Source: a virus
Taxonomy: Duplodnaviria > Heunggongvirae > Uroviricota > Caudoviricetes
IMG/VR virus record: IMGVR_UViG_2703718840_000011
Length of the DNA: 17,603 nucleotides
Direction: 5' to 3' (one strand)
Shown: positions 1-16,428 of the stretch, piece by piece
Layout: every line of letters starts with the position of its first letter
How positions within the stretch are numbered: the first letter of the stretch is position 1
Notes under the pieces: generated by a model
Database searches by the model: none
Seen by the model: only the letters and a program-made list of their open reading frames with translations
Told to the model about the DNA's origin: nothing
Translations under genes and position numbers: made by a program

Positions 1-207
1 ATGCCAAACGGCGCTGTGGACGCGTTAAAGGAAGAATTAACTCGACGCATCAGTAAGCGTTATGACGATGTAGAGGTGATCGTAAAAGCCACCAGCAACG
101 ATGGCCTTTCTGTTACACGCACTGCCGATAAAGATTCAGCTAAAACTTTTGTTCAGGAGACTCTGAAAGATACCTGGGAATCTGCTGACGAGTGGTTTGT
201 TCTCTAA
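1..207 (+). CDS. DinI-family (damage-inducible protein I-like) protein; probably 5'-truncated by the window edge
   Basis: 68-aa ORF ending ...[18 protein letters not shown], matching the conserved C-terminal ETWESADxWF signature of DinI-like proteins. Full-length DinI proteins are about 80 aa, so roughly 12 N-terminal residues appear to be missing. Family call is by motif recognition, not a search. Confidence 0.6.
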
Positions 208-273
208 TTAACACGTAAAATCGGTAACGGCTTGAAATCATTAAATACTCGCCCTATCGAAAGCTCACCAGCC

Positions 274-309
274 AGCCGCAACACGTTCTTACATATGACG
301 TGTCTGCGG
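274..309. repeat. 36-bp imperfect palindrome, copy 1 (AGCCGCAACACGTTCTTACATATGACGTGTCTGCGG)
   Basis: Seen directly: internal inverted arms CCGCAACACGT / ACGTGTCTGCGG. About 83 percent identical (30/36) to a second copy at 2741-2776 in the same orientation. Confidence 0.5.
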
Positions 310-323
310 TTTCAACTCCACCA

Positions 324-357
324 GCCCACCAATCATGATTGGGCTTTTTCGTTTTTC
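324..357 (+). terminator. Putative rho-independent terminator downstream of the DinI-like gene
   Basis: Short GC-containing hairpin (GCCCA ... TGGGC around the palindrome CCAATCATGATTGG) followed by CTTTTTCGTTTTTCTTC on the + strand. Confidence 0.4.
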
Positions 358-486
358 TTCACCTGCAAGCAAACCGTTGTATCATGGCGGAATGAAGATG
401 AGCTAGGAATAATCTTATGAATCAGCTCAATATTCATATAAAAACATTTCGAACTTTGGTGTACAAAACTACATAGGGATAACTTT

Positions 487-1689
487 ATGTCTCTTCGTTT
501 CAGACAAACCTTTACTTTATTTCCTGGCGTTCGACTCAACATTGGCAAGCGTGGAATAAGTGCAAGCATTGGTATGCCTGGCGCAACTGTCAATGTTGGT
601 AAAAAAGGGGTTAGAGCAACTGTCGGATTACCGGGCACAGGCTTATCTTATACTACACCTACCTTGCCCTATGATGATGGATACTCAGTTACCAATCCAT
701 TAAATCCAGCCCCTACAGAACCTCATTTGGGGTCTGGGTCATCTCCAGAAAACACACCATCGAACGCTAAAATATATATGCCTGTAGCTGGCATGAATGA
801 AATATCCAGCGCTTCGGTAGAAGTCCTTACAAGTACCTCCCTTTTACCTTTACGAGATTTGATTGCTAAAGCACGAGAACAAAGAGCAGAGATAAAAGCA
901 GATCTTCAAGAGGCTCTTGCCGAAGAATCAAAACAAAAAAGCGAGCTGGCTCGACGCAAATCAAGTCTATTCCGTTGGTTTTACAAACGACGCATCGCAG
1001 AACTTGAGACACTACTCCCCCTAACCCAAGCTGAGATATCTCGCCTAGTTTCATGGGAAGACAGCACAAAAATAGCCATAACATTCGAGAGCAGTGATGC
1101 TTCACAGCGCGCATATGCAGCGATGGTCCATGCATTTGATATGTTAAAATCGAGTGTCAAAAAATGGGATATTACTGCAGATAAAGCTACAGACCAGTTT
1201 GCTGAAAGAACATTAGCAACCCGGTCTGTTAATCGTCACCCAGTTACCTTTGATTTTAGTTCAACGGATCTCATTCAATTTACAGGGCGTGCGATGAGGT
1301 TTGAAAATGCAAATGGAGACGATATTTTGCTTTATCCTGGAGTTGCAGTCATACCACGAGCCGATGGAGCATTCGCTCTGATTGATTTACGCGAATTACA
1401 AATTAGTTCAGAATATCTAAGATTCCATGAGGAAGAAGGTGTTCCCAGTGACTCACGCATAGATGGTTATACATGGGCGAAAACGAATAAGAATGGCTCA
1501 CCAGACCGTCGTTTTAAAGACAACTACCAAATCCCTATTTGCATTTATGGAAATATTACTTTCCATTCTCAAACAGGGGTAACTGAAGAATATATGGTAT
1601 CAAATGCAGATGCCGCGCACGCCTTTGCTGAGGCAGTAAAACGCTATCAGATTTCACTCACAGAAACAGAAGCGTTGGTACAAGCCTAA
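487..1689 (+). CDS. Hypothetical protein with N-terminal DUF4236-like glycine-rich motif (400 aa)
   Basis: Long ORF with AGGGA about 8 nt upstream of the ATG. N-terminus FRQTFTLFPGVRLNIGKRGISASIGMPGATVNVGKKGVRATVGLPGTGLSY fits the pattern I associate with DUF4236; the remaining ~340 aa have no domain I recognise. AT-rich relative to neighbouring phage genes. Confidence 0.7.
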   Translation: MSLRFRQTFTLFPGVRLNIGKRGISASIGMPGATVNVGKKGVRATVGLPGTGLSYTTPTLPYDDGYSVTNPLNPAPTEPHLGSGSSPENTPSNAKIYMPVAGMNEISSASVEVLTSTSLLPLRDLIAKAREQRAEIKADLQEALAEESKQKSELARRKSSLFRWFYKRRIAELETLLPLTQAEISRLVSWEDSTKIAITFESSDASQRAYAAMVHAFDMLKSSVKKWDITADKATDQFAERTLATRSVNRHPVTFDFSSTDLIQFTGRAMRFENANGDDILLYPGVAVIPRADGAFALIDLRELQISSEYLRFHEEEGVPSDSRIDGYTWAKTNKNGSPDRRFKDNYQIPICIYGNITFHSQTGVTEEYMVSNADAAHAFAEAVKRYQISLTETEALVQA

Positions 1690-1885
1690 TTTATCGCCGA
1701 TATGGGGACGAATCGTAGGTTAAAACCCCTCGAACAAAAAAACCTTAAGAACCAGACTATTATGGCTGGTTCTTATACGGAGGATTTGTTATTGTACAAC
1801 TCTTCTATCTGGTATATTTACGGATAGAACTGTTCGGGCTACTCAATCCTTTTTAAGTACAAATGAACAGATAGAAATAGTTATA

Positions 1886-2688
1886 TTGCAAGGAGCTATC
1901 ATGCACACTGAGTATATATGGCGATATCTTGACATAGAGAAGTTCTCTATGTTACTCGAACAAAATGCTTTATTTTTTTGCTCAGCAAAAAATTTTGAAG
2001 ATCCGTTCGAAGGTGAATTTGCTTGGGGACATACTGGCTATAAAAAATTCATTGAGACACAGGAAAAACTATGCGCTACTCATGGTGCCGGCATGGACTT
2101 AGAGCCTTTCATGGCATTCAATTTAAAGACACTTAAGGAAATAAGCGAGAGGACATATATAAGTTGCTGGCATTGTAACGAACATGAATCTGAAGCTATG
2201 TGGAAGCTGTATTGTAAAAACCCCGCTAAAGGCGTTGTCATAAAATCAAAGAAAAAAACCTCCAAAGCCAACTTGAAAATAATAATCTAAACAAACTACA
2301 ATTAAAACACGTAAAATACATCAAAAATTTCTGGATAAAACAATACAATCCAGAATCAGATGTATTCTTTAACAAGAGACCATCTTTCGAACACGAAAAA
2401 GAGTTTAGAGCTATTTTTCAAGAGAATACCTTTAACACTCCACCTGTAAAGGGAAAATTAGTCCCTGTATCTCTTAATAATCTGTTGGAAGAAATAAGGA
2501 TTTCACCTTTCGCAGATAAGGATTTCAAAAATGAAGTTTTACAAATTTCAAAAAAATATGGACTAGATCTAAAAGTCAAAAACTCTGAAATTGAAATGCA
2601 TCCCATCATGCATGTTGAGGAAGAAATAATTGCAGAAGGCCCCAATTGGTATCAGTCAAAAATCAGGTTGGCAATACGTGATGCTTAA
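1886..2688 (+). pseudogene. DUF2971-like protein gene interrupted by a -1 frame change in an A7 run (track ORFs 1886-2290 and 2485-2688 are the two halves)
   Basis: N-terminal half carries the DUF2971-like signature (RYLDIEKF...LFFCSAKNFEDPFEGE). Frame 1 is open from about 2230 to 2688 and continues the protein sensibly. Adding one A to the A7 run at about 2252-2258 would fuse both halves into one ~267-aa ORF, a typical DUF2971 length. Confidence 0.6.
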
Positions 2689-2740
2689 TCTTATATTGAA
2701 TTTTTTTATGTCTCCTGCTGAAACTAGCTAAAATTTACCA

Positions 2741-2776
2741 AGCCGCAGCACGTTATTGCATACAACGTGTATGCGG
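2741..2776. repeat. 36-bp imperfect palindrome, copy 2 (AGCCGCAGCACGTTATTGCATACAACGTGTATGCGG)
   Basis: Seen directly: 30/36 identity with the copy at 274-309, same orientation. Lies between the stop of the DUF2971-like gene and the stop of tfa (convergent), so it may also act as a hairpin terminator for the minus-strand tail operon. Confidence 0.5.
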
Positions 2777-2791
2777 CGTATCTCAAAACGA

Positions 2792-3376
2792 TTACTCCAT
2801 AACAGGGACAGCAGGCCACTCAATATCCGGTGCTACTGATGTATCAACACGGTTCAGCAACACCCGATACTTTTTCCAGGCTTCCAGCAATGAGGTTTCT
2901 TCCTCCGTTGCAATTTCCAGATCTGCAGCATCCTGAAGCGGCGCAATATGCTCACTGGCTACCTGCATCAGGTTGTTTTTTGTTTCTTCCGCCTCCCGGA
3001 TCCGGAACAGTTTTTCTGCTTCCGTATCCTTCACCCAGGCTGTGCCGTTCCACTTCTGAAACTCCCCTTCCGGCGATAACCAGGTAACATTTTCCGGTAA
3101 CGGACCGAGTTCAGAAATAAATAACTCGTCCCCTGACGCTACGTCATAAACCGTTTTACCCCGATGGTCTTCAACGAGATGCCACGATGCCTCATCACTG
3201 TTGAAAACAGCCACAAAGCCAGCAGGAATATCTGGTGGTGCAATATCGGTACTGTTTGCTGGCAGACCTGTATGAGGCGGAATATATGCGTCACCTTCAC
3301 CAATAAATTCATTAGTTCCGGCCAGCAGATTATAAATTTTTATGGTCCGTGCTTGTTCACTCATTCTGAATGCCAT
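2792..3376 (-). CDS. tfa: Tail fiber assembly protein (Tfa family, lambdoid type)
   Basis: 194-aa [57 protein letters not shown]... closely matches Tfa proteins of E. coli lambdoid prophages as I recall them. Start overlaps the stop of the upstream stf-type ORF (TAATG). Confidence 0.85.
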
Positions 3377-4455
3377 TATGCAAGCCTCACAATATAGTTA
3401 AATGCGATGTTTTTGACGGTGTTTTCCGCGTTACCCGCAGCGTTAACGGTGATGGTGTGTCCATGTGAACCAATCGCAACGGAGTGCGTATGCGCACCAA
3501 TACCTACAGTATGTGCATGTGCGCCAGAACTTGCTGCAGTACCAGACAGCGAGTGGGTATGAGCACCTGCTGACTGTGTCTGAATACGTTGATAATACGA
3601 TCTATAGGAAGAAGTCTCCGGGCTTACTTGATACTGTGAATTCTGGACATAAGTGAACCCACCGCCATCATAAAATGCTAACGCAGAACCGCCGCCTCCT
3701 GGCCAACGAATACCATTACCATGAGTATGAACACCGGCAGACCCCGTAGAGCCACTCAGACTGTGCGTATGCGCCCCGGTGTTATTCGTGGATTTAGTGC
3801 CGTAATCAAACGACGATGTGGTTTTCGTCCCTAAATCCGTACTGGATGCGCTGGCGCTGTGGGTGTGCGATTTAATGCCGTCCTGTTCCTGAGACAATAC
3901 GGCCCGGCCACTGGCGGGTTTGCCCTTGATTGTCCAGCCGCGCATATCTGGAATAACACCTGAAGGATAGGCAATAGCCAGTTTCGGATATGCTGCCTTA
4001 TCAAACGTCTGCCCCTGCATGATTGCATAACCTGCAGGTGGTGTATCTGATGGCCACGGCAGCGGAACACCTGGCGGAAACGCTTCAATATTTGCCGAGC
4101 CGTCAAATTTTACGCCGTTAATTGTCCTTGCAGTTTGCAATTTGGTTGCTGTGCTTGCATTACCCGATAAAGATCCAGTGATACCACCACTCGCGTTTAA
4201 TTTAGTTGCAATTGTAACATTGCCAGTATGGTTACTAATTATAAACGGCCTTAAGCTATTGTGCGTACCAAGACTGTTAAACTCATAACGGTATTTCACG
4301 TTAATCCCGTTCAGATCATCACTACCGGGAACGTTCGTCGAGGCATGGAGATACCCCGCGCTCAGCGTGGACTGATGTTCTGCTGCACTCGCTGGCGTAG
4401 CAGCGGCGACCTGCCAGACTACTGCGGACAAAATAACAGCACATAATTTACGCAT
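3376..4455 (-). CDS. Chimeric ORF: Lom-type signal peptide and N-terminus (~60 aa) fused in frame to the C-terminal part of a side tail fiber (Stf-type) protein
   Basis: N-terminus [59 protein letters not shown] is lambda Lom-like (signal peptide plus first beta strands). The rest is tail-fiber-like ([13 protein letters not shown], repeated HxH motifs, C-terminal [11 protein letters not shown]). Junction near 4270-4285. GAGG RBS upstream of the ATG. Confidence 0.7.
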
Positions 4456-4477
4456 AATTACCTCTCGCTTTTCTGCA

Positions 4478-4504
4478 ATAAAAAAGGCGCCATTTCTGGC
4501 GCCC
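4478..4504 (-). terminator. Rho-independent terminator between J remnant and lom' (tJ-like)
   Basis: On the minus strand: GGCGCC-AGAAAT-GGCGCC hairpin followed by TTTTTTATTGC, located between the J' stop and the lom' RBS. Confidence 0.55.
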
Positions 4505-4522
4505 GTATCTGGGTTATAAAAT

Positions 4523-5660
4523 TCAGCTAATCGTGATGCCTGCAGTGGCTTTCTTCATCACCACAACCAGCAAATCGCTGATACTTGCTGTGGGATACCA
4601 GTTATTTACCAGCCATGCTGACACCGAAAACTCCAGTGTCATGTGACCGTGACCGGCAGGCATATCAATAACACCACTGTAAATCAGCGTATTATCCAGC
4701 GCGGTACGGTTATAAATTTCAGCACCGTTTTTCCGTACTATCAGGCGGCATAACGAATAAATATCGTTATTCTCCCGCTCATGTTTAGCGCCGCTGAATG
4801 CCACCGCCGGAATAACAATCTGCCGGTCAAACGGCTGATCGTCATAAACCCTGACGGTGATGGTCCCTGATGGCCACCGTTCCGGTGCACGGGAGTCCCG
4901 GGGGAAAGCTTTGCCCACTGTTTTAACGAGATCGCCTTCAATCTGGTTGGCGGACAATTTTCCCAGAACCCGACAGTTCTCGTTAATCGTGACGTTGTTG
5001 AGCGTCCCGGAGTTCGCATTCACGTTACCGCTGATATCGGCATTTTTCGCCGTCAGCCGCCCGTCCGGTGTCAGGGAAAATGCCGGAGGATTACCGCCGC
5101 TGGTAATGGTCGGAGCCGTCAGGCGTTTCAGGAACACGTCGTTCATGAATATCTGATCGCCCTGACCAACAAACATCGGCTTTGTGTTGCCATTCGCAGG
5201 ATTAATCATCGCAATCCGGTCAGCAGCCAGAAGCACCTGACTCTGCATACCTGCTGGCGTATTCTCAATACCGGCTCCGATACCCGCAATATAAAGGCGT
5301 CCGTCCTTCATCTGCTGCAGTTTCACGGCCCACATGCTGTTCAGGTTATTATTTGTATCAACCTGAACTTTCTGTATCTGCTGGATTGCCGCACTCTGGT
5401 CTTCCAGTTTTTTATTGACGGTCTGCGTGATTTCATTGCTGACATTCGTAATGGACGTCCTGATTTCAGCCAGGTCCGGCGCAAGCTGACCGTTATCAAT
5501 CTGCGTCCACAACTCCTGGGCCAGATGTGTTTTCCCGATTTCTCCTTTGAAAAAATCCAGGTAACCTTCCGCATCATCGCTCGCCCGACCGACAGCCTCC
5601 ACGAATGCCGATTTGCCAACGGTGTTCACACTGCGAACGTAAAAATAATAATCATGGCCC
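4523..5660 (-). pseudogene. C-terminal ~380-aa fragment of J-type host specificity (central tail fiber) protein; N-terminal two-thirds deleted
   Basis: Translation from ...[39 protein letters not shown]... through [30 protein letters not shown] to the C-terminus matches the C-terminal region of lambda J as I recall it. The first ~34 codons of the track ORF (starting at 5758) are out-of-frame read-through of rusA sequence. Full J proteins are about 1100 aa. Confidence 0.7.
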
Positions 5661-5891
5661 GGTTTGATATTGATACTGGCGGCTATCCGGAGGAAACAAC
5701 ACGATCTCCACTGAAGCAGGTGCCGACGTTGGTTTCGGCAGGCGACGTAACTGCTCAACTATTGCTGCGCACGCCGCGCTCTGGAATTTGCGCCCCGCTG
5801 CGCTTATCAGACTCTTACCAGCAAACGCCCCTTTGTTGGGGTGTCGCCAGTACGTGTTCACGCTGGGCGGAAAAGGCAGGATCAGCTTCAT
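5652..5891 (-). pseudogene. rusA: RusA-family Holliday junction resolvase, N-terminal fragment (truncated at the deletion junction with J)
   Basis: MKLILPFPPSVNTYWRH... matches the RusA N-terminal LPxPPSxN motif. The ORF ends after 79 aa with non-homologous residues (YQYQTGP), whereas RusA is about 120 aa. GAGAGGGG RBS and ATGA overlap with the upstream gene are intact. Confidence 0.55.
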
Positions 5892-13494: not shown

Positions 13495-13704
13495 ATGGCA
13501 AAACTAATGAAAGCGAGCCAATGGGGACGCCGTGAATTCTCTAATGGCTCAATTCCTGACAACCGAACGATAAAACGCTGGGTCGAGAACGGTCTGCTCA
13601 TGGGGCGTATAGTGGACGGTTCTGTTTTTGTCTGCGAAACAGAAAAATGGGGAGTCGACTCAATGGTTAGTCAAGCTGTTCGCAAGTTAATAAATGAGGG
13701 ATGA
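13495..13704 (+). CDS. xis: Excisionase (lambda Xis-type)
   Basis: KASQWGRREFSNGSIPDNRTIKRWVENGLLMGRIVDGSVFVCETEKWGV parallels lambda Xis (LQEWNARQRRPRSLETVRRWVRECRIFPP...GREYLFHESAVKV). Start chosen at the ATG with GGAG 8 nt upstream. Its stop overlaps the integrase start. Confidence 0.6.
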   Translation: MAKLMKASQWGRREFSNGSIPDNRTIKRWVENGLLMGRIVDGSVFVCETEKWGVDSMVSQAVRKLINEG

Positions 13705-14885
13705 CCATGGCGGCAAGGCCACGTAAAAAAGAATACAGACATCTTCCTGATTATCTGGTTTTTGATAAAGATCGAGGTGTTTATAAATTCACACTTATTA
13801 CCGGAAAAAAGAAAAATATAGGTAAGGATCGGGCAATAGCCGTTGCAATCGCCAGAGAGTACAACCTGAGGATGCGATCAGAATTATACCCATCAGTGGA
13901 TAATCTTATTAGAGAATCTGGCGGGGTCACCGGAGAAGCAAAACCATTTGCTGAACATGTCGATCACATAATGGCCAGAATTATCGAAGACGAACGACCT
14001 TCCCAGAGTACCTTAGATGACTGGAAAAATGACGCTCTACGCGTAAAAGCATTTTTCGTAAATGTTCCGGCATGCGATATCGAACTTGAACACGTTAATG
14101 CCTACATCAACAAATATCATGCCAGCGCATCCGCAAATGTGCAGAACAGAAAGGTCAGCTTTCTTAAAAAGTTGTTCTCTTATGCGGTCGATGAATCACT
14201 AATGCAGGATAACCCGGCCATCAGAAAAAAAATGCGTAGGACTGATGAGAAGAAAAGACGGCGCCTGTCACTCGAGCATTTTATAGCTATCAGGCAGGCC
14301 GCTGCACCATGGTTAAGAACAGCAATGGACCTAGCATTGCAGACTACACATGCACGACTCGAAGTATCGCGAATCCGTTACTCAATTCGCGAACCTAAAG
14401 ACGGTTTATGTGGATGTGTTTGGTTCGAACAACCACAAAATGGCATATATGGTACACTATACATCCATAGGCAAAAAGTACAAAAAAAGGAGGCATCACA
14501 TGTTGCAATACCAATTGGTGAAGAATTGAAACGGATAATTGACAATAGCCGTGACAATGTGGCCAGTCCCTTTGTCGTTCATAGAATCCCAGAACGGCAT
14601 GTTAAACGCAGTAAAGAGGTTTCGCACCCAACTCAAGTTGCACCAGATTATTTGAGTCGGTCATTCTCTTCCGTGCGAGACAAACTCGGACTATGCAATC
14701 ATCTAGCAATGGAACAAAGACCTACATTCCATGAAATAAGAGCTTTGGCAGCTCACCTATTTGATAAACAAGGGATTGATCCGCAGGGACGAATGGCACA
14801 TAGCGATGCGAAATCTACTAAAATTTATACTAAAAATCATATAGATTGGATTGTTGTCCCTCATGGAGAAATTAAAACCGGTTAG
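13701..14885 (+). CDS. int: Tyrosine-type site-specific integrase (lambda Int family)
   Basis: 394 aa. C-terminal catalytic region with H-x-x-R (TFHEIRALAAHLF) and the tyrosine motif (MAHSDAKSTKIYTKNH). Arm-binding-like N-terminus. Xis immediately upstream. Confidence 0.9.
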   Translation: MTMAARPRKKEYRHLPDYLVFDKDRGVYKFTLITGKKKNIGKDRAIAVAIAREYNLRMRSELYPSVDNLIRESGGVTGEAKPFAEHVDHIMARIIEDERPSQSTLDDWKNDALRVKAFFVNVPACDIELEHVNAYINKYHASASANVQNRKVSFLKKLFSYAVDESLMQDNPAIRKKMRRTDEKKRRRLSLEHFIAIRQAAAPWLRTAMDLALQTTHARLEVSRIRYSIREPKDGLCGCVWFEQPQNGIYGTLYIHRQKVQKKEASHVAIPIGEELKRIIDNSRDNVASPFVVHRIPERHVKRSKEVSHPTQVAPDYLSRSFSSVRDKLGLCNHLAMEQRPTFHEIRALAAHLFDKQGIDPQGRMAHSDAKSTKIYTKNHIDWIVVPHGEIKTG

Positions 14886-15022: not shown

Positions 15023-15985
15023 TTATTTACCCTTATTATACTCTTCAGTAATCTTATTCATGGATGATATATATTTATCCAGCCCACCATAGTTGGCTAT
15101 CATTCGAAATGAATTACGGTACTCTGCCATTTTCACATCATGATTAGTAATTCCACACCAGCCACAAACTTTATTTTCCATGTTTAAAGGCTCATAACAT
15201 TTTTTACATTGCCTTGATGCAGGTATTATATTGCCATTAATAAATTGGTGTGATTTGAGATTTTGAGATAAAAGAAATGGTGTAGTTGTTGTTTTTCCTA
15301 TTACCATTTCGAAATATCTACATTTAGCCTTTTTAGCTAAAGATTGAATTTTCTGCTTTAATAAATCATTTGATTTGTGCCCAACTATAACTCCAGTTAT
15401 ACAATTAATCGGTACCGGAAGGAGCATAAGATTGTCATTCAGTTTAGTAAGTGCTTTCTCATTAATTATTACGCGACGTTCCTGCTCATAACTCCAGCAA
15501 GTTTGTTTTGTCAAATATGCGGCTGTCATTATACAGGATTGTAGCCAGTAGATATAACGAGGTTTACAGATATGAAATGCTCTCGCCAGAATGTCTTCAA
15601 TACCTGTATCTGGAGAATCTTTATATTCAACATCTGCTATTGAACTATGATCCTGGAAGCCGATTTCATCCAAATACTTTTTAAACTTCTCCTCATTAAT
15701 CTCTATTACAAAACCAGAAGAATTACCTGCATAATGTGCCCACATAGGTGGTATCACAGGGCTTTTCGTAAAACAAGTTGCTGGTTGTTTTGTAACCATG
15801 CCAATCATTTCATTGTAAAATGCTAACTCATCAGAACCGCGATTAAAATCAATAGTAAGGAAAAACTCATAGGGATCATTATATTCATGTAAATGAGAGA
15901 ATTTTATTCCTATATGTGTTTCATCCATCATCAATTTATCAATTATATCCGCTCCCATAAACTTATACAAATTGGTCATATACAA
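15023..15985 (-). CDS. DUF2971-family protein with C-terminal CxxC...CxxC zinc ribbon (320 aa)
   Basis: N-terminal NLYKFMGADIIDKL...IKFSHLHEYNDPYEF matches the DUF2971 hallmark (LYKY...FS.P..FNDPFE). C-terminus CKKCYEPLNMENKVCGWCG. AAGGAG RBS 7 nt upstream. Strongly AT-rich gene and flanks. Confidence 0.75.
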   Translation of the reverse strand: MYMTNLYKFMGADIIDKLMMDETHIGIKFSHLHEYNDPYEFFLTIDFNRGSDELAFYNEMIGMVTKQPATCFTKSPVIPPMWAHYAGNSSGFVIEINEEKFKKYLDEIGFQDHSSIADVEYKDSPDTGIEDILARAFHICKPRYIYWLQSCIMTAAYLTKQTCWSYEQERRVIINEKALTKLNDNLMLLPVPINCITGVIVGHKSNDLLKQKIQSLAKKAKCRYFEMVIGKTTTTPFLLSQNLKSHQFINGNIIPASRQCKKCYEPLNMENKVCGWCGITNHDVKMAEYRNSFRMIANYGGLDKYISSMNKITEEYNKGK

Positions 15986-16065
15986 CTCCTTTTTTATAAA
16001 ATAACATTTTAAATCATATGATTATGGAGGCACAAAATCCAGTAATTAGTTTTCAAGCCGGTTGT

Positions 16066-16428
16066 GATGTAGTTCGAGGACAAACTGAAACGTATTATTG
16101 ATAACAGTCGCGATAACGTTGCCTGCCCGTATATCGTTCACCGTATACCGAGCGTAATAACAAACGCAGTAAAGAGGTATCCGCACCTGCCTATCTTAGC
16201 CATACTTTTCATTGCCCCGTGATTCGTTAGGCTTGTGTAATAATTTGACGATGGAGCTGCGCCCCCACATTCCACAAAATACGCGCACTAGCTGCATTTT
16301 GTTTGATAAACAGGGAGTAGACCACAAGGGCTCATAGCCCACAGCGACGCGAAATCAACGAAAATTTATACGCGGAACCATATGATTGGGTAATGCTTCC
16401 GCACGGTGAAATTAAATACAATGCATAA
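16066..16428 (+). pseudogene. Decayed 3' fragment of a second, related tyrosine integrase gene
   Basis: Seen directly: nucleotide similarity to the 3' end of the intact integrase (e.g. identical AAACGCAGTAAAGAGGT; ...GCGATGCGAAATC.ACTAAAATTTATAC...; ...CACGGTGAAATTAAA). Translation gives KLKRIIDNSRDNVA.P.IVHRIP, then frameshifts and stops, then ...AHSDAKSTKIYTRNH...PHGEIK. It lacks the 5' two-thirds of the gene. Confidence 0.65.

Follow-up and report, generated by a model that had tools for sequence, protein, structure and literature searches.

Paired hairpin copies bracket varied cargo genes at a site between tfa and dinI-like genes of temperate coliphages

Results

Hairpin pair and neighboring genes

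The window analyzed here is a 17,603-nt stretch of DNA from a virus of the class Caudoviricetes (IMG/VR record IMGVR_UViG_2703718840_000011), and near its left end two copies of a 36-bp imperfect palindrome, hairpin 1 (HP1) and hairpin 2 (HP2), bracket a cassette of two cargo genes located between a dinI-like gene and the convergent tail fibre assembly gene tfa. Positions 1–3400 are identical to a locus in E. coli CT282, in which a lambdoid prophage adjoins tRNA-Pro and yejM. Loci for comparison, designated by L numbers, were collected by a pattern scan of IMG/VR, by DinI, tfa, DUF4236 and ea47 anchors, with a covariance model (R1) and with a fold-checked hairpin finder. The IMG/VR loci are redundant, counts refer to the matches listed, and part of the loci were ascertained through the hairpin pattern itself; counts that are anchored on the 3' untranslated region (UTR) of dinI, anchored on tfa, or based on BLAST are free of this ascertainment. 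The features between the dinI-like gene and tfa are as follows.

1–207, + strand: 3' part of the dinI-like gene, 68-codon open reading frame (ORF) (Pfam DinI, E 7e-20)
208–273, + strand: conserved 66-nt 3'UTR of prophage dinI-like genes, which moves with the hairpin (54 distinct UTR-plus-hairpin sequences from other loci)
274–309 (core 276–309), + strand: HP1, dinI-side hairpin copy (R1 53.1 bits; 3 differences from the L012 and L235 copies, 6 from HP2)
310–316, + strand: TTTCAAC, short U-rich tail after HP1, common to several otherwise different cargo contexts
323–356, + strand: second hairpin, with canonical intrinsic-terminator features (GC-rich stem 323–345, then TTTTTCGTTTTT; fold of 260–360)
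358–385, + strand: promoter-like site upstream of the cassette genes (TTCACC, 16-nt spacer, TATCAT; consensus scan, 9/12 matches)
487–1689, + strand: cargo gene 1, DUF4236-domain protein of 400 aa (Pfam DUF4236, E 7e-21)
1901–2688, + strand: cargo gene 2, DUF2971 and PADLOC candidate PDC-S31 (its two halves correspond to N- and C-terminal portions of PDC-S31, E 6e-12 and 3e-9)
2724–2742, + strand: degenerate dinI 3'UTR remnant beside HP2 (alignment)
2741–2776 (core 2743–2776), + strand: HP2, tfa-side hairpin copy (R1 57.3 bits; no U-tract after it on either strand)
2777–2791: 15-nt spacer between HP2 and the tfa stop codon, conserved with tfa (a 15–16 nt spacer is also present in lambda and at empty sites)
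2792–3376, − strand: tfa, tail fibre assembly gene, last gene of the late operon, converging on the cassette (Pfam Caudo_TAP, E 3e-44)

HP1 (AGCCGCAACACGTTCTTACATATGACGTGTCTGCGG) and HP2 (AGCCGCAGCACGTTATTGCATACAACGTGTATGCGG), given in direct reading, lie on the same strand in direct orientation and are identical at 30 of 36 positions (83%), in agreement with a sequence-only reading of the window that had first described them. Their placement 3' of the DinI-like gene and between the cassette and tfa was also correct in that reading, as HP1 begins 67 nt past the stop codon of the dinI-like gene and HP2 ends 15 nt short of the stop codon of tfa on the opposite strand. A degenerate pattern made from HP1 and HP2 and allowing at most 3 mismatches detected only these two sites in the window, and no site was found in any of 200 dinucleotide-preserving shuffles. 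Each copy had been described as an imperfect inverted repeat, and both are indeed predicted to fold into a stem of 11–12 bp with a single bulge or small internal loop and a loop of 9–11 nt. Folding energies of −17.8 (HP1) and −19.0 (HP2) kcal/mol correspond to z-scores of −4.5 and −3.7 and were equalled by 0 of 200 shuffles; the opposite strands of the hairpin fold about equally well. Both structural cores are recognized by covariance model R1, whose E-values are rough. On the + strand a weaker similarity extends about 20 nt upstream of the hairpins (252–275 compared with 2724–2742, about 14 of 19 aligned bases and a 3-nt gap), so that the repeated unit is somewhat longer than 36 nt. A scan of positions 1–3600 with Rfam 15 produced nothing credible at the hairpins, the sole overlap being CssrB on HP1 with 19.6 bits (gathering score 76).

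Empty sites and the range of cargoes

A synthetic empty junction, in which window positions 110–309 were joined to 2777–2976 (dinI 3' end, UTR, one hairpin, spacer and tfa 3' end), was matched in 551 of 5,426 complete E. coli genomes in one place with at least 80% query coverage, and 25 of the 25 matches listed were single-piece alignments with 100% coverage. Relatives without the cassette therefore keep exactly one copy between dinI and tfa, as in strain FORC_069, where dinI, UTR, one hairpin and tfa follow each other, and in loci L074, L150, L160, L206 and L277, where a single hairpin lies between dinI and tfa. The cassette of the window (the DUF4236 gene and the frameshifted DUF2971/PDC-S31 gene) was matched in 120 genomes, and 6 of 6 near-identical IMG/VR cassette loci with enough flanking sequence contain both hairpin copies, so that no cassette-bearing prophage lacking the repeat was seen among them. 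As some prophages have the cassette and others lack it, the earlier proposal that the two copies delimit inserted DNA is upheld. Presence and absence between the same conserved flanking genes, a feature of morons, is seen for this cassette and also for ea47 of phage lambda when compared with L074. At least seven different cargoes sit between two hairpin copies.

DUF4236 gene and PDC-S31 candidate: window, hairpin spacing 2467 nt
ea47: lambda, hairpin spacing 1589 nt
S-adenosylmethionine methyltransferase gene and 3' fragment of a second tfa: L042 and L152 (at least about 35 loci), hairpin spacing 1049 nt
PD-T4-3: L056, hairpin spacing 1021 nt
PD-T4-3, Dcm and EcoRII, after a pin-type invertase: L046 and L109, hairpin spacing 4170 nt
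517-aa protein with no family match: L126, hairpin spacing 2055 nt
protein with a below-threshold match to SDH-type proteases: L204, hairpin spacing 1602 nt

Cargo genes are mostly oriented like dinI, toward tfa, and no recombinase common to the cargoes, and no shared integrase or transposase, was found among the cargo classes compared. The rule of two copies is not universal, for the 2H10/Rac type has cargo but its tfa lacks an adjoining hairpin. From these comparisons, the position between tfa and dinI emerges as a variable accessory-gene site of temperate coliphages.

Occurrence of the hairpin

The hairpin is present in 5,239 of the 5,426 complete E. coli genomes, at 1–10 places in each with a median of 2, which is a prophage-like and not a REP-like (repetitive extragenic palindromic) copy number. 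In 57 of 67 tfa-anchored loci with downstream sequence it starts 15–16 nt past the tfa stop codon, and when loci were sampled by the UTR only, 42 of 43 distinct downstream sequences were predicted to fold as a hairpin at that spot. Every inspected context of the hairpin is a prophage setting with tfa, dinI or an invertase; two complete Escherichia/Shigella chromosomes each gave a single match to a narrower pattern. The dinI UTR is retained without the dinI gene in phage lambda (24196–24258) and at many other loci, and RNAalifold, applied to the alignment of UTR and hairpin, predicted no consensus structure within the 66-nt UTR and a structure for the hairpin only.

The loose likeness to REP sequences that had been noted for one arm of the palindrome is not borne out by these copy numbers and prophage contexts. 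A REP element, or a bacterial interspersed mosaic element (BIME), present at the locus by chance would share with the hairpin a similar size (about 35 nt), the imperfect palindrome and the location in a 3'UTR; yet such an element should be present in hundreds of copies and not at 1–10 places per genome, the contexts inspected are prophage junctions, and the chromosomal dinI of E. coli K-12 is without the element, leaving this explanation a negligible chance. Inheritance of the hairpin from chromosomal dinI was considered and rejected, because K-12 dinI has a different canonical terminator and no match to the model.

Some occurrences lie outside the usual arrangement. At the end of the Rac prophage a hairpin is found about 420 nt downstream of uspF (L229 and L230, 2501–2534, from the K-12 derivative XL10-Gold and from BL21(DE3)) and upstream of ynaM, ydfK and pinR, in an arrangement like that of phage 2H10 and with no dinI annotated there. 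In L244, L251 and L265 a DUF4236 homologue lies upstream of a DinI-family gene whose product is only 31% identical to E. coli prophage DinI; in each case (about 2104–2468 in L244) this gene is followed by the conserved UTR, which is better conserved than the gene, and then by a hairpin with three G·U pairs in the dinI sense. Matches were also obtained in genome contigs assigned to Pseudomonas, Shewanella, Streptomyces, Enterococcus, Chromatium and others (L004–L008, L010, L011, L015, L016, L018–L027). Those contigs of these assemblies that were examined or that carried both hairpins are lambda sequence, several of them about 48.4 kb long, and the short low-coverage contigs with the hairpin presumably stem from lambda or E. 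coli DNA, as contamination or spike-in, and not from the native genome.

Origin of the two copies

Of the 34 core positions, 6 differ between HP1 and HP2. HP2 is separated by 1 difference from the L136 copy and by 2 from the empty-site copy in L014, and HP1 by 3 from the L012 and L235 copies. Each copy is thus nearer to copies of other phages (1–3 differences) than to its partner (6 differences), and a target-site duplication is therefore not the origin of the pair. Beside the tfa-side copies, degenerate stretches of the dinI UTR remain, with lengths of about 7, 20–25 and 50 nt, indicating that these copies once were ordinary junctions of tfa, hairpin, UTR and dinI. These comparisons identify HP1 and HP2 as old paralogues from two diverged junction lineages that were joined by inter-phage recombination.

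The sequence-only reading had also considered remnants of a site-specific insertion, either att-like (attachment-site-like) or as a target-site duplication, and direct repeats that flank an insert, with one copy at empty sites, are what such an event would leave. This origin is nevertheless very improbable: the partners differ at 6 of 34 positions and have near-identical relatives elsewhere, the tfa-side copy carries a degenerate dinI UTR remnant whose length differs by cargo class, no integrase or transposase is shared by the cargo classes, break points on the UTR side are variable, and the single integrase of the window, about 11 kb away, is of the lambda Int type and has an arm-binding domain.

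Mosaic boundaries at the hairpin

Clustering of the sequences that flank the hairpin gave 30 left and 17 right clusters, found in 46 combinations. In an ungapped comparison, similarity stops at most 5 nt from the tfa-side edge of the hairpin in about 81% of cluster pairs, and break points on the dinI-UTR side are variable (0–7, about 24 and 39–69 nt). The window and strain CFS3313 differ at 2 positions in 1–2800 and at 20 positions in 2801–3400, which places a recombination break at or beside HP2. A PD-T4-3 unit common to L056 (6166–7220) and L046 (9022–10064) is 96% identical over 1,049 nt; it starts 5 nt before one hairpin and ends within the loop of the next, leaving a half hairpin in one lineage. 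As L056 has baseplate and tail-fibre genes of P2/Mu type, the PD-T4-3 hairpin unit is not confined to lambdoid phages. At the start of the Dcm/EcoRII module in L046, L066, L072 and L109, only part of the promoter-side hairpin remains, the break lying in its loop. Since these four loci represent the only lineage found with a half hairpin, recurrent breaks in the loop were rejected. L118 contains a chimeric hairpin, of dinI-side type on its dinI half and of tfa-side type on its tfa half, the kind of hairpin expected if a dinI-side copy had recombined with a tfa-side copy.

Hairpin and UTR might be a functional site for cassette exchange, by which phages would gain, pass on and lose accessory and defence cassettes. 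It would act as a portable patch of homology or as a hairpin recognized by a recombination or nuclease activity, with an integron-like outcome but without an integron integrase. Homology blocks of many unrelated flanks that end exactly at hairpin edges are consistent with such a site, as are the PD-T4-3 unit that is bounded by hairpins in two different contexts with one break inside the loop, the chimera of L118, which is expected for cargo loss between copies, and the existence of arrays of co-directional gene-plus-hairpin units, a unit also being found in L056 among P2/Mu-type tail genes. The conserved bulge and loop hint at specific recognition, and Red-type recombination could act on a 34-bp hairpin (about 100 bp when the UTR is included). 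We regard this explanation as possible but doubtful, given the variable break points on the UTR side, partner copies that have only short exact stretches and 6 mismatches in 34 nt, the lack of a recombinase common to the loci, and the recovery of one chimeric hairpin and one half-hairpin lineage only; moreover, recombination in any conserved patch would give the same pattern without an evolved purpose. In a stronger form, which we judge unlikely, dinI UTR and hairpin would be a dedicated docking sequence, and defence and other accessory genes would move between temperate phages, both lambdoid phages and at least one with tail genes of P2/Mu type, as gene-plus-hairpin units that recombine at the hairpin. 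If so, the junction between tfa and dinI, that of lambda with ea47 included, would be a recombinase-independent integron-like array whose conserved bulge and loop some factor recognizes.

The same arrangement in phage lambda

Lambda (L028, NC_001416) has two hairpins in direct orientation (22573–22606 and 24162–24195) that bracket ea47 (22686–23918). The first lies 15 nt after the stop codon of tfa (orf-194), and the second is followed at 24196–24258 by a dinI 3'UTR remnant, the dinI gene itself being gone. The match of lambda to the window begins at window position 2743, within HP2, and the tfa-side copy of lambda retains a longer UTR remnant than HP2, beginning CAATACTC. As in the window, the two copies of lambda have 6 differences from each other, and for each of them another phage has a copy with only 1 difference. 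L074, L120, L122 and L141 are lambda-like phages that have a single hairpin and lack ea47. In the literature searched, no mapping of RNA 3' ends was encountered for lambda at 22.6 kb or 24.2 kb.

Terminator-like features of the hairpin and its possible roles

Among the variants the stem is kept through compensatory changes of C-G to A-U and C-G to U-A and through G·U pairs, and in one variant the interior of the stem is replaced, with its base CCGCAG/CTGCGG kept and then CTTTTTACTTTTT. By manual reading, about 9 of 13 distinct contexts downstream of the hairpin on the dinI-sense strand begin with a U-rich tract, for example TTTTTCTTTTTCGC and CTTTTTACTTTTT. HP1 and HP2 both have the GC-rich stable stem-loop of intrinsic terminators. 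Only TTTCAAC follows HP1, with a full terminator 14 nt farther on. Read on the opposite strand as GTTGAAA, this short sequence lies directly beside the hairpin in loci of the window type and of the 2H10/Rac type, in L029, in L046 and in others. This terminator module at 323–356 also stands beside the hairpin in many loci with different cargoes (L012, L046, L056, L066, L096, L113 and L126). The separate canonical terminator, the missing U-tract of HP2 and the like arrangement of lambda had not been mentioned in the sequence-only reading.

Stem covariation, the variant with the replaced interior and the U-tracts fit a predicted terminator for dinI or for the preceding cargo gene. Among the three possibilities raised earlier (boundary terminator, insertion remnant, regulator site), a predicted terminator at the module boundary fits best. 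Several observations weigh against a terminator at a mosaic boundary as a sufficient description. HP2 has a U-tract on neither strand, HP1 is backed by the separate canonical terminator at 323–356, which speaks against a simple terminator, and at the commonest empty sites CATATC or CATAAT, and no run of U's, comes after the hairpin in the dinI sense. The loop of 9–11 nt is large for an intrinsic terminator, for which 3–8 nt are typical, and a simple terminator scan of the window, which requires a loop of 3–8 nt and a run of T's, called neither HP1 nor HP2, so that of folding and terminator prediction, both proposed with the first description, stable folding was obtained for both copies and terminator calls for neither. 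The loop TCTTGCATACG (dinI sense; for example window 287–297) is at least as conserved as the stem and persists across variants with compensated stem changes; such conservation is unusual for a plain terminator and not needed by it. Template switching in quasi-palindromes, a process at the level of DNA, could be another source of compensated stem changes and would need no selection on RNA. In many independent flank types the junction falls very precisely at the tfa-side hairpin edge, for which selection together with recombination in a shared unit accounts only in part, and the partial ascertainment of loci through the hairpin pattern has to be counted here as well. Given the missing U-tract of HP2, the large conserved loop and the backup terminator of HP1, copies without a tail are read as terminator-type or 3'-end-protecting stem-loops, which would be situated where converging transcription meets.

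Conservation of the loop while stems covary could instead reflect a structured RNA with a sequence-specific role in processing or stability of the converging tfa-sense and dinI-sense transcripts, or in binding of a protein or RNA by the loop, and not a simple terminator. Such a role would be consistent with the conservation of the unstructured 66-nt UTR even after a DinI homologue of 31% protein identity (L244), and both strands fold about equally well. It is quite improbable, however, as the hairpin belongs to no Rfam family (CssrB overlaps at chance level, with 19.6 bits where the gathering score is 76), there are two types of loop and also variants whose interior is fully replaced, and, because overall divergence among the sampled loci is low, the conservation of the loop may reflect recent common ancestry only.

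The suggestion that the palindromes are operators of a dimeric DNA-binding regulator of the cassette received no support beyond their dyad symmetry, with ACGT-containing arms about two helical turns apart. Copies are located at the 3' ends of transcription units and not at promoters, they tolerate asymmetric changes of G·U type, a one-sided bulge and a replaced stem interior, and the element flanks unrelated cargoes and also occurs at sites without cargo. There is only a very slight chance that they are operators; G·U wobbles, replaced stem interior and U-tracts point to a hairpin that acts at the level of the transcript.

Two further candidates were rejected. A mini-ORF of 15 codons, whose ATG abuts the hairpin in two tfa variants, was judged coincidental, HP2 of the window having ACG at this place. 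Pin-type invertases occur beside some loci, but the hairpins are direct, occur without an invertase and, according to manual reading, are unlike crossover sites of the gix/cix type.

Cassette genes and the remainder of the window

In the identical locus of strain CT282 and in CFS3313, the dinI-like gene is annotated in RefSeq as a frameshifted pseudogene. It starts 41 nt before the window (L001, 14960–15207), an A-run near its start is one base shorter than in phage 2H10, and the 68-codon ORF of the window starts at an internal ATG. The promoter-like site at 358–385 is weak, and the total of sites in the consensus scan is no higher than in shuffles. Cargo gene 1 had no match in PADLOC, and DUF4236 homologues of 77–95% identity are found in other phage contexts. 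Cargo gene 2 is split in the window by the loss of one A in the run 2252–2258 (A7) and is intact, with an A8 run, in CFS3313 (246 aa) and in other strains. The G+C content is 30–44% for the cassette and 47–53% for tfa and stf; tfa is 95% identical to orf-194 of lambda, and stf (− strand) comes next. Rfam family IS009 has a full-length match inside the tfa coding region (2835–3033, − strand; 221 bits, gathering score 117), and this family probably models a fragment of tfa and not a separate small RNA.

The prophage of the window has undergone heavy deletion. A fusion joins stf to the end of J (region 4279–5688), 2.7 kb between stf and the J end being gone in comparison with CT282, and past 5688 the head and tail genes are gone and genes for a Dam methylase, a replication protein, CII-like and CI-like (S24 peptidase) proteins, DUF2303 and Int follow. 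A second gene of the DUF2971 family (320 aa; 15023–15985, − strand) is located between the intact integrase gene (13701–14885) and a remnant of a second integrase (16028–16416), a frameshifted C-terminus with 39% identity that explains a 72-nt direct repeat (14771–14842 and 16312–16383). The prophage may have a further accessory slot at its opposite end, occupied by this second DUF2971 gene.

Discussion

Taken together, the element is probably a terminator-type hairpin at a mosaic boundary that was brought in twice by inter-phage recombination. In the basic arrangement, a single hairpin closes the 66-nt dinI 3'UTR between the convergent genes tfa, at the end of the late operon, and dinI. With cargo at this position, one hairpin stays with tfa and another with the dinI UTR, and the cargo is thereby bracketed by direct repeats. 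HP1 would then close the dinI unit with the terminator at 323–356 as backup, and HP2 would mark the point where transcription of the cassette toward tfa and transcription of tfa meet. UTR and hairpin (about 100 bp) are the sole sequence common to otherwise unrelated flanks, and homologous recombination in this unit would therefore explain the reticulate pattern of flanks and cargoes. Candidate enzymes would be phage recombinases of Red/RecT type or RecA, and recombination between the direct copies HP1 and HP2 would delete the cargo and restore the empty site. Minimal segments for efficient pairing are 23–27 bp for Red-beta and 31–34 bp for RecA, and Red-type recombinases work with short and diverged homology (PMC3945230).

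Morons of lambdoid phages, described by Hendrix and colleagues, likewise are accessory genes of lower G+C content situated between conserved phage genes and downstream of a terminator; they come with a promoter-like site and are variably present (summarized in 10.1101/2024.10.15.618418). In contrast to these, the cassette of the window has homologous hairpin copies at both ends, the upstream one belonging to dinI and the downstream one, which has no U-tract, being shared with the converging tfa. The modular theory proposed short conserved boundary sequences, or linkers, for modular exchange in lambdoid phages. The hairpin resembles linkers as a short conserved junction sequence with flanks in many combinations and homology that breaks at its edges, but here the boundary consists of a structured hairpin and a 66-nt UTR, probably with a function of its own, and exchange through it is putative. 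Single hairpins between tfa and dinI or cargo are also similar to intrinsic terminators between convergent genes, and in some tfa variants (L160 type) an A-tract on one side corresponds to a U-tract on the dinI-sense strand, but no clear U-tract is ever seen on the tfa-sense side. In lambdoid phages, a Q-modified, terminator-resistant polymerase transcribes the late operon.

Integron attC sites are imperfect palindromes with extrahelical bases that separate gene cassettes in direct orientation. Similarly, bulged imperfect palindromes in direct orientation separate the cassettes described here, and arrays of units occur; in contrast, there is no IntI and there are no GTTRRRY and RYYYAAC core sites, the palindrome ends in CCGCAG/CTGCGG, cassettes have their own putative promoters, the break points vary in position, and the two partners of a pair are old paralogues. 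REP elements stabilize mRNA at the 3' end and are present in hundreds of copies in chromosomal intergenic regions. They provide a possible working analogy for HP2, which, being an imperfect palindrome of about 35 nt in a 3'UTR and lacking a U-tract, could stop 3' exonucleases, but the hairpin is unrelated in sequence, has 1–10 copies per genome and is confined to prophages. The hairpin is neither a REP element, an attC site, an att site nor a member of a known Rfam family.

Hotspots for defence genes in P2-like phages and P4-like satellites also occupy a fixed spot beside tail-fibre genes and hold varied anti-phage systems (PMC9122126). In the present case the defence cargo consists of PD-T4-3, Dcm/EcoRII and the candidate PDC-S31, and phage group and site are different, the latter extending from tfa to dinI or to the attachment site and corresponding to the b region of lambda. 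Bracketing by hairpins is found here, and none is described for the P2/P4 hotspots in the passages and abstracts consulted. Neither these hairpins nor a bracketing of ea47 by hairpins is described in the literature searched; older lambda papers are mostly outside its coverage, and an earlier mention is possible.

The cassette thus behaves as a moron at a hotspot, and the hairpin as a conserved boundary sequence with terminator features. As morons, boundary terminators and hotspots are already established, the gain is a concrete testable example and not a new principle. A 34-nt hairpin and a 66-nt UTR provide a simple landmark for a variable accessory-gene site in E. coli prophages, and since PD-T4-3, an EcoRII restriction-modification pair, the candidate PDC-S31 and several unknown genes are located at this site, new defence genes can be sought there. 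The unexplained ea47 of lambda is placed in such an accessory slot, and a lambda relative without ea47 exists. The element either evolved to serve exchange or merely permits it, and it offers a natural case for asking whether short structured boundary sequences drive the mosaicism of phages.

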